Program-made: the position numbers and the translations under genes | Notes under the pieces: generated by a model | The model's database searches: none | What the model was told of the DNA's origin: nothing | Seen by the model: only the letters and a program-made list of their open reading frames with translations | In this document: in pieces, positions 8,878 through 13,064 of the stretch | How positions within the stretch are numbered: the first letter of the stretch is position 1 | Layout: each line of letters opens with the position of its first letter | IMG/VR virus record: IMGVR_UViG_3300048579_000388 | Span: 10,454-74,453 of that record | Direction: 5' to 3' (one strand) | DNA from: a virus | Lineage: Duplodnaviria; Caudoviricetes | DNA length: 64,000 nt

Positions 8878-9104
8878 GATGGGTTCCTTTTCAGATAATC
8901 AGCCAGTCGAGCGGCATACCAAGCCGATTTTTCGTAGTCCTCGGCGCCGTTCTTCTTTGATGCGCGCGCCTGGTATTTGATGATGTTGAACTTCATGGCG
9001 CCGAAGAATTCGTCGCGGCTGAGCCACGCCTCGAGGACCTTGATGACCTCGTAGGGGTTTTCTGCGCCCCCATAGTGGGATGGATGGTCGACTGCGGCGC
9101 TCAT
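8874..9104 (-). CDS. DUF3310 (SaV-like) phage protein
   Basis: VDHPSHY...GAMKFNIIKYQARASKKNGAEDYEKSAWY; ATGA overlaps with the RT stop and the thyX start. Confidence 0.85.
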   Translation of the reverse strand: MSAAVDHPSHYGGAENPYEVIKVLEAWLSRDEFFGAMKFNIIKYQARASKKNGAEDYEKSAWYAARLADYLKRNPS

Positions 9105-10096
9105 CTTGCGAGACCCCTTTTGATGCCGAGGAAATTGAGCAGGTTTTGGCTGTCGGCCCAGCCGGCGTGACCGATCCACGCCGCAAGGAATTTCTCCAAT
9201 CGGGCATGGTCTCCGGCCGCGCGATAGGCTCGGATCTTGCGCTTGGCGCGTATCACGCTGTCACGGCGCAGCAGCTTATGGTTCGGCCAGATGCGGTAGC
9301 CGACGAAATTGACGCCGCGACTGACCGGCTGGATGCTCCATTTGGAAAAGCGCAGGCCAAGCTGTTCGCGCGAGAGCATCTCGATCGAGGCGCGGACGCG
9401 ACGGAGGTGCTCGGCCGATTGGCCGAGCACGACGATGTCATCCATGTAGCGATACCAGTAGTGCTCGCCGAGCGTCTGTTGCAGGTGGCGATCGACGACG
9501 CCAGCATAGATGTTGGCGAAGATCTGCGAGGCAAGGTTGCCGATCGGCAGGCCGATGCCTGATCGTGGCACGATCGTCTCGATCAATCGCTGCGTCGCTC
9601 GGCAGGAGATCTTTGCCTCGATTAGGCGCCAGAGTACACCATGTTCGATGCAGGCAAAGTAACGCGAGAAATCCGTCTTCAGCGCATAGAGCGGCCCACG
9701 GTCACGCGAAAGGCGGCGGAGGTCGGCTTGGAGGGTGATCGCCGCTTGGTGCGTGCCCTTGCCGGGGCGGCAGGCATAGGAGCGGGGCAGCAGTGTCGCC
9801 TCGAAGATAGGGCCGATGATGGCGCAAAGCGCCTGTTGCGCCACGCGATCCTCGAATGGAAGCGCGGAGATCAGTCGTTCCTTTGGGTCGAAGATCCGGA
9901 ACTCCTGCGGCGTACCTGGGCGATAGGCGCCATCGCGCATGGCCTGCGCGAGGTCGGCGAGGTTGAGCGCAGAGAATTCCTTGAATTCCAGATAGCCAGG
10001 CGTCAGCCGTTTGCCGCGCGACGTGAGGCGCAATGCCTCACGCATGTTCGCATCGTCGGTGATGCGACCGATGAGGTTGCGATATTTCTTGGACAT
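9101..10096 (-). CDS. DGR reverse transcriptase (331 aa from MSKKY)
   Basis: KERLISALPFEDRVAQQAL, SYACRPGKGTH, KTDFSRYF, GLPIGNLASQIFAN (DGR-type), YRYMDD, VNFVGY. Confidence 0.96.
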   Translation of the reverse strand: MSKKYRNLIGRITDDANMREALRLTSRGKRLTPGYLEFKEFSALNLADLAQAMRDGAYRPGTPQEFRIFDPKERLISALPFEDRVAQQALCAIIGPIFEATLLPRSYACRPGKGTHQAAITLQADLRRLSRDRGPLYALKTDFSRYFACIEHGVLWRLIEAKISCRATQRLIETIVPRSGIGLPIGNLASQIFANIYAGVVDRHLQQTLGEHYWYRYMDDIVVLGQSAEHLRRVRASIEMLSREQLGLRFSKWSIQPVSRGVNFVGYRIWPNHKLLRRDSVIRAKRKIRAYRAAGDHARLEKFLAAWIGHAGWADSQNLLNFLGIKRGLAR

Positions 10097-10324
10097 GATC
10101 CGCGGATGAAAATGAATTTGATGAAAATGCCGGTCGCGGGTTTCGACGGCTCTGCCGCTACTCCCCGCTGTACCGGACCTTGAAGTGTATTCGCCTAGGC
10201 CGGACGGCTGGGCCGACCACCCCCGTGTTTTGCCAGAGGCAAAATCACGATGTTGCCAGCCAGAGGCCGCAACGGTGGAAGATGACCGGCGTGACCGTGA
10301 CCAGCGCCGCGTCGGAAAAGGGTC

Positions 10325-10445
10325 GTCGCAGGCGCCGCGCGCCCCGATGTTCTCGTTCGAGTTCTCGGGCCAGTAGTCCAAGTTCGCGTAGCGGGAGCCG
10401 GCGTTGTCGCCGTTGATCCACGAGCCGCCGAAGATGGAAGGACGC
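10325..10445 (-). repeat. DGR template repeat (TR), 121 nt with 22 adenines and six AAC codons
   Basis: Lies between the avd stop and RT; reads RPSIFGGSWINGDNAGSRYANLDYWPENSNENIGARGACD in the target frame. Confidence 0.96.
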
Positions 10446-10452
10446 ATCGACA

Positions 10453-10859: not shown

Positions 10860-10879
10860 GCCTGCGCTTCCGCGCAGGC
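10860..10879 (-). other. DGR target-recognition hairpin after VR1 (8-bp stem, GGAA loop on the coding strand)
   Basis: GCCTGCGC-TTCC-GCGCAGGC on the plus strand, abutting the target1 stop codon. Confidence 0.85.
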
Positions 10880-11805
10880 TAAGCAGGGCTCAGGTGGCCG
10901 CAGGCGCCGCGCGCCCCGATGTATCCGTGCGAGTACCCGGGCCAGTAGTCCAAGCTCGCGGAGCGGGAGCCGGCGTAGTCGCCGTTGACCCACGAGCCGC
11001 CGAAGATGGAAGGACGCGGGATATCCGGGTGTCCATCCGTGCCCCACTGCCACACGGTTCCCGTGGCATCGAACAGCCCGTGCTTGCTGATGAAGCGGTG
11101 TCCTTCATCGCTCAGCGTGCCGGTGATTTTGGGATCGCGATCGCGCGAGCATCGCTCTTCCACGCCATAGGCGGCGGCGAAGAATTCTTCGGCAAACAGA
11201 AGGCGCTTGCCATGGGCCGCGTAGATTTCGACCGCCGTAGCGTAGTCAAGCTTCTTTGTCTTTTCGGATCCGTCAGGATGATCCGGCAAATCCCGACCGT
11301 CGGCGATAACGGCGCCACAGCGGCTGGTGCCGTGCGCCAGATGGTCGGTGCCGAGCAGATAGATATCAACCCAGAAGCGGAGGCCATGCATTTCGACGAA
11401 GGTCATGCCGCGCGGGTCTTTGCAGGCCGGGCGGAAGTCGAGATCCCATAGCGAGAATGGGTTAATCGCCGGAACAGCGTCGCCGCCTGCTTTGCCAAGG
11501 GCATTGCCGCCCGGTGCGAAATGGAAGCCGGCGAAGGCGCCGCTGGCGACAACACCTGGATGTGCCGGCGCCGCGAAGGGCGCGCCCGACACATCGACAT
11601 CGATGGCGTAATCGCAGCCAGGCTTCAGCTCGTCGGTTTCGATCGCTGTATCACTGTCGAAGGCGACCTTGCGGCCGTCGATCTCGATCACGGTTCCGCC
11701 TCGGATGGCAATGTCGGCGCGGCCTGCGGTGACGAGAATGGATTTCGAGGCCTCATGGCGGGCGATCCGGATCGGACGCGAAAGGGTTTCTGCAACTGCA
11801 GTCAT
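10879..11805 (-). CDS. DGR target 1: Mtd-like protein with C-terminal CLec (FGE-type) fold, 308 aa
   Basis: AGFHFAPGGNA, INPFSLWDLDFRP, DPRGMT, WVDIYLLG, HGKRL and GARGACGHL match recalled BPP-1 Mtd motifs; AAGGAA SD before ATG at 11805. Confidence 0.92.
   Translation of the reverse strand: MTAVAETLSRPIRIARHEASKSILVTAGRADIAIRGGTVIEIDGRKVAFDSDTAIETDELKPGCDYAIDVDVSGAPFAAPAHPGVVASGAFAGFHFAPGGNALGKAGGDAVPAINPFSLWDLDFRPACKDPRGMTFVEMHGLRFWVDIYLLGTDHLAHGTSRCGAVIADGRDLPDHPDGSEKTKKLDYATAVEIYAAHGKRLLFAEEFFAAAYGVEERCSRDRDPKITGTLSDEGHRFISKHGLFDATGTVWQWGTDGHPDIPRPSIFGGSWVNGDYAGSRSASLDYWPGYSHGYIGARGACGHLSPA
10897..11017 (-). repeat. Variable repeat VR1
   Basis: 11 mismatches to TR over 121 nt, 10 of them at TR adenines. 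Confidence 0.95.
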
Positions 11806-11836
11806 GGGTCTATTCCTTGATTGTGGGGAGGGGCAG

Positions 11837-11856
11837 GACTGCGCTTTCGCGCAGTC
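11837..11856 (-). other. DGR target-recognition hairpin after VR2 (8-bp stem, GAAA loop on the coding strand)
   Basis: GACTGCGC-TTTC-GCGCAGTC on the plus strand, abutting the target2 stop codon. Confidence 0.88.
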
Positions 11857-13064
11857 TAAACAGGACGCAGGTGGTCGCAGGCGCCGCGCGCCCCGATGGT
11901 CTCGTCCGAGTGCCCGGGCCAGGAGTCCAAGTCCGCGTAGCGGGAGCCGGCGCCGGCGCCGTCGAGCCACGAGCCGCCGAAGATGGAAGGACGCGAGAAA
12001 TCCGGATCGCCATCGGTGCCCCAGATGTGCATGTTGCCGGTGGCCTGCATCAGGCCGAAACGGCTGGTGCGCGGGGCGTCCAGGCAGGTCTGTTCCGGTT
12101 CGCGGGGCGCGGCGGACTTCTCGGTCACGCCATAGGCGGCGATGCGGAACTCGTCGTATGTCGGCAAGCGTTTGCCGTGCTCGGCCATGATTGCCTTTGC
12201 CGTTTCGTAATCGAGCTTATCGAGCGACCAGCCATCGGCGATCGTTGCGCCGCGATGGCTCGTGCCTGATGTCTTGTGGTTGGTGCCGAGCAGGTAGATG
12301 TCGAACCAGCAACGGATGCCATCGGCCTCGACGAGCGTCATACCGCGCGGATCGGGGCAGGATGGGCGGAAGTCGAGATCCCAGAGGGAGAAGGGATTGA
12401 TGGCGGGCTCACTGTCGCCGCCGGAGCGAGCTTGCGCATGACCACCGGGCGCGAAGTGGAAACCCGCGAAGAAGCTTGCGTTCAGCGGGTTGGCGCCGAC
12501 AGGCGTTGCGATCGGCTCGCCTTTGGCGTCGAGCGTGATGGCGTAGTCGCGGCCCGCCGCCAGATCGGCGATCGGGACCGTGACAGGATTGGGGAACGCG
12601 TGCTCCGTCTCGTCGATGCGAATGACCGTGCCGGCGCGGATGGCCAGCTCAGTCTTGCCGTGGGCTGAGAGAATGGGGAGCGAAACATCCGGGCGCGTGA
12701 TGAGGGTTGGCGCTCCAGCGCTTCTCGGCGCGGCCGTGACCAGTCGCGTGACCAATCCAACCTTCTCGCTCGTTGTATTGAACTTTGCCGGCACCGCTTC
12801 GCCGAACAGGTCAATGCCTTCATCCATAGCGATAAGGTCAGCGCAGATGACGACGTCGGCCAGTTCTTCTGCCAGTTGCTGGCGTGACGCCCGTGATCCA
12901 GGCAGGCCGATGCGCTCGCGGTCAATCTTCTTGATGACGTTGCAGGCTTCGCCGACTTCTCCGGCGAGCTCATTGCCGCGATAAGCGAGTGTGATCTTGT
13001 TGTCCTTATCCCATTCCTTCTGGCGCGCGACATTAGCCGAACGCAGATCATTGAAGCTGCTCAT
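11856..13064 (-). CDS. DGR target 2: N-terminal MazG-like NTP pyrophosphohydrolase domain fused to an Mtd-like CLec module, 402 aa
   Basis: N-terminus has ELAGEVGEACNVIKK...LAEELADVVIC (ExxE/ExxD); C-terminus is paralogous to target 1 and ends GARGACDHLRPV. Confidence 0.9.
   Translation of the reverse strand: MSSFNDLRSANVARQKEWDKDNKITLAYRGNELAGEVGEACNVIKKIDRERIGLPGSRASRQQLAEELADVVICADLIAMDEGIDLFGEAVPAKFNTTSEKVGLVTRLVTAAPRSAGAPTLITRPDVSLPILSAHGKTELAIRAGTVIRIDETEHAFPNPVTVPIADLAAGRDYAITLDAKGEPIATPVGANPLNASFFAGFHFAPGGHAQARSGGDSEPAINPFSLWDLDFRPSCPDPRGMTLVEADGIRCWFDIYLLGTNHKTSGTSHRGATIADGWSLDKLDYETAKAIMAEHGKRLPTYDEFRIAAYGVTEKSAAPREPEQTCLDAPRTSRFGLMQATGNMHIWGTDGDPDFSRPSIFGGSWLDGAGAGSRYADLDSWPGHSDETIGARGACDHLRPV
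11874..11994 (-). repeat. Variable repeat VR2
   Basis: 11 mismatches to TR over 121 nt, all at TR adenines. Confidence 0.96.

Follow-up and report, generated by a model that had tools for sequence, protein, structure and literature searches.

The window analysed here is a stretch of 64,000 nucleotides (positions 10,454 to 74,453) of the IMG/VR virus record IMGVR_UViG_3300048579_000388 and carries, on its minus strand, a complete and intact diversity-generating retroelement (DGR) of the BPP-1 type with two target genes, T1 and T2. In the DGR of phage BPP-1, the RNA of a template repeat (TR) is copied by a reverse transcriptase (RT) together with the accessory protein Avd, adenines are misread, and the cDNA replaces a variable repeat (VR) in the target gene. 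The corresponding parts lie in the window in the order T2-T1-avd-TR-RT (Table 1). The original prediction, made from the sequence alone, had named an RT with the motifs GLPIGNLASQ and YMDD, an avd-like open reading frame (ORF), one TR and two VRs; family searches identified both proteins, and the repeats were recovered as one family on the minus strand where they had been placed. Compared with the BPP-1 proteins, the RT shows 50.6% identity to Brt (residues 1-326 of 328) and the bAvd protein 44% identity to Avd. The most likely start of the RT is the ATG at 10096; the 464-aa open frame that continues up to 10495 passes through the TR.

Over 125 nt, VR1 and VR2 each differ from the TR by 12 mismatches, of which 10 and 11, respectively, fall on TR adenines. 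Within the limits of 121 nt that had been used before (10325-10445), the counts of 10/11 and 11/11 were reproduced, as were those of 22 adenines and six in-frame AAC codons in the TR. The full 125 nt contain 23 adenines, and they occupy codon positions 1 and 2 exclusively. Towards their 3' ends the VRs have a GC-rich stretch in common with the TR, followed by a short stretch unlike the TR, as in the initiation of mutagenic homing elements IMH and IMH*. A G to C exchange at 10324, shared by both VRs, marks the boundary of IMH and IMH*.

We then looked for diversification in natural populations. Four metagenomes, each from a different study (two from activated sludge, one from freshwater and one labelled just "metagenome"), supplied Logan contigs, which were compared with positions 8800-13200 (~4.4 kb); variation was read from these assembled contigs, not from raw reads. 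Outside VR1 and VR2, the contigs differ from the window at four scattered places alone. Within the repeats, 18/20 variable places in VR1 and 7/7 in VR2 are TR-adenine sites (25/27 in sum, with 18% expected by chance, p ~2e-10), and one sample contained two different versions of VR1. VR2, which belongs to a target fused to a MazG-like domain (see below), likewise differs across the metagenomes. The only non-adenine mismatch of the window (10352/10924) is private to the window. As 25 of the 27 variable places sit at TR-adenine positions, we conclude that the DGR acts on both targets in nature, the fused T2 included. The same signature appears in 24 related loci, in which 531 of the 574 TR/VR mismatches in 44 VRs are at TR adenines; these make up 19% of the positions, which excludes chance. 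As a side observation, contigs of runs X1, X2 and X4 tend to end at VR1 or VR2. Assemblers apparently break on VR heterogeneity, which could lead to under-assembly of DGR targets in surveys. Contig joints leading from TR to VR2 were judged to be assembly chimeras between repeats and were rejected as biology.

Both targets are true homologues of Mtd, the target protein of the BPP-1 DGR. Sequence identity to Mtd is 36% for T1, beginning at Mtd residue 47, and 34% for T2, beginning at residue 55, and extends to residue 378 in both cases; T2 residues 120-399 align with Mtd 55-378. A HMMER search against PDB sequences returned Mtd with an E value of 2.5e-43. The AlphaFold2 model of T1 has a pLDDT of 90 and was matched by Foldseek to 1YU0 (TM 0.86, 36% identity). 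The full-length model of T2 is confident in its MazG part alone, the Mtd part with a mean pLDDT of 53 being unusable. For T1, translation most likely starts at the ATG at 11805, not at the ORF start at 11970. Missing from T1 and T2 is the N-terminal beta-prism (Mtd residues 1 to ~46-54), the presumed attachment of Mtd to the fibre (PMC10743442); in T1, some 13 residues with a pLDDT of 54 stand ahead of the Mtd-aligned part. The T1 and T2 sequences contain no signal-like segment, membrane-spanning segment or lipobox. The family matched by both targets, PHROG 11262, is labelled "tail protein". Since T1 and T2 are true Mtd homologues, homology by itself points to receptor binding on a tail.

The same cassette was found in about 30 IMG/VR contigs, with RTs 66-83% identical to that of the window (49% in L041) and targets 47-64% identical. 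Two targets are present in 20 of the 24 relatives and one in the other four. In a phylogenetic tree, one clade with a support of 99/99 unites the downstream (T1-type) copies from 13 closer relatives, which shows that the duplication is old and that neither copy has been lost. In L018 (10001-11829) the order of the T1-type and T2-type genes is swapped, the upstream copy grouping with the T1-type clade. Homologues amount to 1,336 clusters (90% identity) in the protein database at E <=1e-20. The 120 best of these homologues have 251-328 aa except for four, window T2 among them, and the named proteins in this set come mostly from Rhizobium, Agrobacterium, Shinella, Brucella/Ochrobactrum and Mesorhizobium. 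Homologues of at least 540 aa occur only at 43% identity or less, in the BPP-1-like branch, and two of these long forms carry tail-associated N-terminal domains, namely PF03906 (T7 tail-fibre N-terminus) and PF10983 (DUF2793). Among cultured phages, matches were restricted to BPP-1-like phages, Synechococcus S-CBS1/3, Marinomonas P12026 and engineered T7, all of them below 40% identity and none with the cassette of this clade. A T1 homologue was not found among PLSDB plasmids.

The location of the cassette is conserved and is not that of a tail gene. In the window it belongs to a leftward arm on one strand, with the order cI, dNMP phosphatase, SSB, dnaN, T2, T1, avd, TR, RT, DUF3310, thyX, HNH and integrase; ATGA overlaps are present at dnaN/T2, RT/DUF3310 and DUF3310/thyX. 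The tail genes lie at ~41.8-58.4 kb on the opposite strand, ~30 kb away from the cassette. The original prediction had described the placement in a leftward early operon, overlaps included, and had contrasted it with BPP-1, whose DGR diversifies the virion protein Mtd. Placement and contrast both hold: in BPP-1, mtd comes right behind bbp9, a tail-fibre gene, where the structural operon ends. It had also proposed a search for syntenic cassettes in Rhizobiales prophages, and early-arm placement indeed proved to be kept in the ~30 contigs and in two isolate genomes. The closer relatives show the order cI..dNMPase-SSB-dnaN-cassette, mostly followed by an HNH gene and an integrase; in some, dnaN stands just after the cassette. 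Independent gene calls for the two isolate genomes gave the same order. Isolates that carry the cassette are those of GCA_900471885.1 and GCA_900469135.1. Flanking genes in distant relatives encode methyltransferases, ParB-methyltransferase fusions, DUF5131, a PAPS-reductase-like protein or a replication initiator. The phrog_2045 protein beside distant cassettes was considered as a diverged clamp and rejected, as it is DUF5131. Tail genes adjoin the cassette in none of the ~30 relatives. The BPP-1-like branch, consisting of BPP-1 and L041, has its cassette at the structural/lysis end; L041 encodes a 585-aa target with an N-terminal extension and 68% identity to Mtd, and its RT gene is followed by one for an endolysin. 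That the window's cassette is not in the tail module is a solid result.

The cassette also comes and goes as a unit. Relatives with the same arm and without the cassette are L042/G001 (dnaN-small ORF-DUF3310-thyX) and L065/G002 (cI..dnaN..thyX..int), and a comparison of four genomes with the DGR and two without it gave the cassette itself as the sole gene cluster specific to the former. In G005 it is combined with a sheath of another family and a baseplate of the Mu/P2-like kind. Conversely, no T1-like gene was found in 27 viral records with a sheath 54-73% identical to that of the window, 18 of which have a completeness of 90% or more; a search of this kind did recover the targets in the window's own record. 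None of the 13 non-DGR proteins of BPP-1 tested, Bbp9 included, had a match in the window, and scans of viral contigs with dnaN and with a 789-aa protein of the tail region yielded no matches. Hence the five-part cassette T2-T1-avd-TR-RT is a self-contained module tied to no particular tail. An HNH_3 gene 66-70% identical to that of the window borders the cassette elsewhere: it follows the RT in L007 (12676-12984), L009 and L092 (13129-13371) and precedes the target in L038 (875-1207). The endonuclease may help to move the module.

Targets in the upstream (T2) position are repeatedly fused to enzymes. Residues ~1-108 of T2 represent a complete MazG-like pyrophosphatase domain, which is followed by an Ala/Pro-rich linker and then by the usual N-terminus of T2-type targets. 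This part shows 71% identity to a stand-alone gene of 109 aa from a Rhizobiaceae metagenome-assembled genome and has 1,632 shorter relatives at up to 81% identity, many of them named MazG-like or NTP pyrophosphatase with PF03819 or PF12643. It matches phrog_229 (E 1e-6) and scores 19.3 bits in Pfam, just below the cut-off of 22 bits. Model residues 1-110 form four helices with a pLDDT of 79-94, and the 13 best VIA matches of the model are all of the MazG, HisE or DCTPP1 type, with Z scores of 7-9 that are common among helical bundles. Acidic motifs (ELAGEVGE, AEELAD) are visible in this putative pyrophosphatase. The junction between MazG part and T2 is the same in contigs of four metagenomes, so that an assembly error is excluded. 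The contig scan with T2 returned two stand-alone MazG matches alone, which is due to the patterns chosen.

Further fusions involve other enzymes of nucleotide metabolism. In L091 (8001-9194), a PF04447 dATP/dGTP pyrophosphatase is fused to a target of the Mtd type, and a complete nucleoside deoxyribosyltransferase is fused to the target in L007 (8527-9948), P0075 and P0089, the latter two with differing, diverged linkers. In every case, the fusion gene directly follows dnaN. VR mismatches at adenines number 17/19 and 9/10 in the fused genes of L091 and L092 (8001-9338), respectively. Altogether, three lineages have fusions to cytoplasmic enzymes and in two of them A-mutated VRs occur in an isolate genome. 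The junction of the L007 fusion contains no ordinary start codon; an internal AAGGAG-N6-GTG start was considered there and rejected because the codon reads GTA. L092 (8001-11256; isolate GCA_900469135.1) has three targets of the Mtd type in a row before avd-RT, the first of them fused to the deoxyribosyltransferase, and all three VRs are A-mutated (9/10, 13/15 and 9/10).

The remaining features of the window describe the surrounding prophage. It has a length of ~56.8 kb, is bounded by a 48-bp direct repeat at tRNA-Pro and is contained in a 74-kb IMG/VR provirus record; the host is a bacterium of the Rhizobiaceae type. The record extends leftward past attL and thus beyond the prophage. There, three tRNA-Glu genes (1155-1593) and, beside them, a further tyrosine integrase on the plus strand (9-1097) belong to a separate element, which is set apart from the prophage by host-like genes (M15 peptidase, glyoxalase, cold-shock domains). 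The rightward arm encodes a cII-like protein, a helicase, a methylase, a primase, a D5-type helicase, a lambda-type terminase, portal, capsid and a contractile tail with sheath and tape measure. Two adjacent tail proteins (45649-47727 and 47679-48950), whose C-terminal parts both belong to PHROG 5939, look like paralogous candidates for fibre or receptor-binding proteins and are followed by a 334-aa tail-fibre-like protein (48947-49951). In four other DGR records, compared in full or over 10-kb flanks, these three proteins were unmatched save for a weak L007 match to the 334-aa protein. The interval from thyX to the HNH gene contains a 234-aa ORF (7470-8174, plus strand) with a coding-like GC content at third codon positions, overlapped by a 329-aa minus-strand ORF; neither gave a family match. 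A scan of positions 5000-20200 for promoters and terminators returned counts near the shuffle expectation and none that was convincing within the cassette.

Table 1. Position of the DGR, its targets and landmark genes of the prophage in the 64,000-nt window
Feature	Position	Strand	Remarks
attL core, 48 bp	5129..5176	+	3' part of tRNA-Pro(TGG); tRNA at 5099-5175
Integrase	5194..6582	-	phrog_1, E 3e-16; final gene of leftward arm
HNH_3 endonuclease	6889..7245	-	family match; beyond thyX
thyX, flavin-dependent thymidylate synthase	8176..8877	-	Pfam Thy1, E 2e-55; start overlaps DUF3310 stop (ATGA)
DUF3310 protein, 76 aa	8874..9104	-	Pfam DUF3310, E 3e-16; start overlaps RT stop (ATGA)
DGR reverse transcriptase, 331 aa	9101..10096	-	RVT_1, E 4e-17; GLPIGNLASQ and YMDD
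TR-to-RT spacer, ~224 nt	10097..10320	-	matches BPP-1 spacer RNA region by position alone; function presumed
TR, 125 nt	10321..10445	-	IMH* at 3' end
bAvd (accessory variability determinant), 125 aa	10453..10830	-	Pfam bAvd, E 1.6e-23
GC hairpin, 8-bp stem, GGAA loop	10860..10879	-	begins at last base of T1 stop codon
T1, 308 aa	10879..11805	-	stand-alone Mtd homologue (beta-sandwich and C-type lectin fold, CLec); phrog_11262, E 5e-74; mtd_2nd, E 3.5e-6
VR1, in T1	10893..11017	-	90% identical to TR
GC hairpin, 8-bp stem, GAAA loop	11837..11856	-	begins at last base of T2 stop codon
T2, 402 aa	11856..13064	-	MazG-like domain and Mtd homologue; phrog_11262, E 9e-72; mtd_2nd, E 8e-5; start overlaps dnaN stop (ATGA)
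VR2, in T2	11870..11994	-	90% identical to TR
dnaN, beta sliding clamp	13061..14203	-	three DNA_pol3_beta domains; start ATG 14203 or TTG 14296
SSB, single-strand DNA-binding protein	14401..14910	-	phrog_44, E 1e-44
dNMP phosphatase-like protein	15275..15958	-	phrog_318, E 1.5e-37
cI-type repressor	18226..19005	-	HTH_3 and Peptidase_S24; head of leftward arm
attR, 48 bp	61866..61913	+	identical copy of attL core; tRNA-Pro 3' end repeat

With these findings in hand, we consider that T1 and T2 may be free binders made early that act off the virion, and not tips of tail fibres, a reading to which we assign an even chance. By analogy with BPP-1, TR RNA would be copied by the Brt-like RT together with bAvd, adenines being misread, and the cDNA would replace VR1 or VR2, targeted by the shared GC-rich IMH and the hairpin past each stop codon. 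The outcome would be that the C-terminal CLec binding face is rewritten in two old Mtd paralogues. T1 and T2 would be expressed early, along with enzymes for replication and the nucleotide pool. The products would be soluble, signal-less and devoid of a tail anchor, presumably trimers by homology to trimeric Mtd, and in this prophage one of them would have a MazG-like NTP pyrophosphatase as its fusion partner. They could act within the cell upon induction or infection, or once lysis has set them free, on a fast-changing ligand such as a component of the host or of a rival phage. We lean towards action off the virion because the early-arm placement is conserved, the prism is missing, the cassette is independent of tail type and no co-inherited partner was found, and also because enzyme fusions are retained at the N-terminus, the end that faces the fibre in Mtd. 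This support is substantial but indirect.

Several points weigh on the other side. The sole characterised member of the family, Mtd, is a receptor binder at the tail tip, and T1 and T2 have the same beta-sandwich and CLec domains, with 34-37% identity. Tail-fibre N-termini are kept in the distant long relatives. A peripheral adhesin need not be encoded in a tail operon, and a protein made early can last until assembly. A soluble protein without a signal is exactly what a virion protein looks like. The similar-sheath comparison spans just moderately related tails (54-73% identity). The enzyme fusions could be tolerated accidents, and free T2 of ~299 aa could still arise in the window from a TTG inside the gene, at 12755, which has GAGAAGG ahead of it. 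Finally, fast VR turnover has been reported for viral structural targets by Roux et al. (PMC8144416).

The strongest competing explanation is ordinary tropism switching. T1 and T2 would then be receptor-binding trimers of an accessory kind that, once translated, become part of the tail or of another virion surface, and their location with the DGR in the early arm would be coincidental. Attachment would proceed via the apex of the beta-sandwich or a short N-terminal strand, and the two paralogues would provide two receptor specificities. Apart from the homology and fold identity with Mtd, the "tail protein" label of PHROG 11262 and the T7-tail-fibre or DUF2793 N-termini of the long relatives, this explanation gains from the high turnover of the VRs in nature, from the maintenance of both paralogue lineages in at least 13 relatives and from the soluble, signal-less character of the proteins. 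It has difficulty, however, with the missing beta-prism, with the lack of adjoining tail genes in all of the ~30 relatives, and with a cassette that is found with unrelated tails and missing from 27 phages with similar sheaths. Nor was a Bbp9-like or other co-inherited partner gene found, and the enzymes are fused to the very end that faces the fibre in Mtd. We regard tropism switching as a serious possibility that falls short of being probable.

Within the off-virion reading, a more specific proposal is hypervariable recognition inside the cell or after lysis, directed against components of host defence or of rival phages, with functional fusions that would tether nucleotide-processing enzymes to the bound ligand. 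We consider this version rather unlikely as it stands.

A selfish or near-neutral passenger module in a permissive spot of the early arm, for which retrohoming needs DNA signals only and the targets, above all the fused T2, would be of little or no benefit, could account for the insertion-like pattern of presence and absence, the HNH endonuclease often found at the cassette border, the accidental-looking in-frame fusions to whatever gene is upstream and the longer terminal branch of window T2 compared with T1 (0.60 vs 0.37), but is very improbable, given that both targets are intact ORFs in every relative examined, 40-odd invariant residues are kept across >1,300 homologue clusters, the T1-type paralogue clade is old (support 99/99), the deoxyribosyltransferase fusion persists over diverged genomes, and the restriction of TR adenines to codon positions 1 and 2 with AAC codons kept speaks for selection acting on the protein repertoire.

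Tropism switching is the textbook role of phage DGRs, and targets of the Mtd type are routinely annotated as tail proteins. In the clade described here, which comprises >1,300 clusters, the Mtd-type target has lost its presumed anchor, belongs to a DGR-linked module of the early arm, is independent of the tail and is repeatedly fused to enzymes, and such targets are being diversified today in activated-sludge and freshwater populations. If they act off the virion, phage DGRs would have a second, unstudied job; if recognition takes place in the cell or after lysis, that job would lie in conflict inside or between cells rather than in adsorption. If, on the other hand, the targets sit on virions, a new mode of adhesin attachment would have to exist. 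Both outcomes are accessible to experiment, as the hosts can be cultured and are amenable to genetics.

Viral DGR targets are generally taken as tail proteins (PMC8144416) and have been counted as structural in surveys (PMC5758913, PMC8144416). Two-target DGRs and targets of the Mtd type are already known (PMC5758913), and the two-target state as such is not unusual because it applies to 13% of DGRs (PMC5758913). In the literature we found no description of Mtd-type targets that are located in an early arm, lack an anchor or are fused to an enzyme. The closest known system is the DGR of BPP-1. It has the same order target-avd-TR-RT as the window, with identities of 51% for the RT, 44% for Avd and 34-36% for the targets, a TR of ~125-134 nt with ~23 adenines, adenine-specific VR change, GC-rich IMH/IMH* and an 8-bp hairpin with a GNAA-type loop past the stop codon. 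It differs in having one target, whereas the window has two, one of them enzyme-fused, and in its location after bbp9 and before the lysis genes as opposed to between dnaN and thyX. BPP-1 is a podovirus, while the window represents a myovirus-type prophage of a Rhizobiaceae-type host. At the protein level, Mtd (PDB 1YU0-1YU4, 2IOU) combines a beta-sandwich (mtd_2nd) with a C-terminal CLec domain containing the variable residues, and the same holds for T1 and T2. Mtd possesses the N-terminal beta-prism, which is lacking in T1 and T2. The Mtd gene stands at the tail-fibre gene and the end of the structural operon in BPP-1, and in L041 too, in contrast to the position of the window's targets between dnaN and avd.

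Other systems resemble the window in single aspects. The tentaclin and tgt2 DGRs of gut phages likewise serve two targets from one TR, the second target in each case being a short CLec protein that has neither prism nor anchor and whose place of action is unproven (PMC10743442). The two targets of the gut phages are unrelated and one of them is a tail-associated tentaclin, whereas those of the window are paralogous Mtd homologues among genes of DNA metabolism. Legionella LdtA and Treponema TvpA are CLec proteins diversified by DGRs outside virions and would be functional analogues if T1 and T2 act off the virion; these two are exported bacterial lipoproteins, in contrast to the phage-encoded T1 and T2 without signal peptide or lipobox. 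The N-terminal part of T2 (residues 1-108), finally, is 70-81% identical to stand-alone MazG-like proteins of 107-200 aa (PF03819/PF12643) from phages and Rhizobiales; where their genes end in a stop codon, T2 continues via the Ala/Pro-rich linker into a DGR target.

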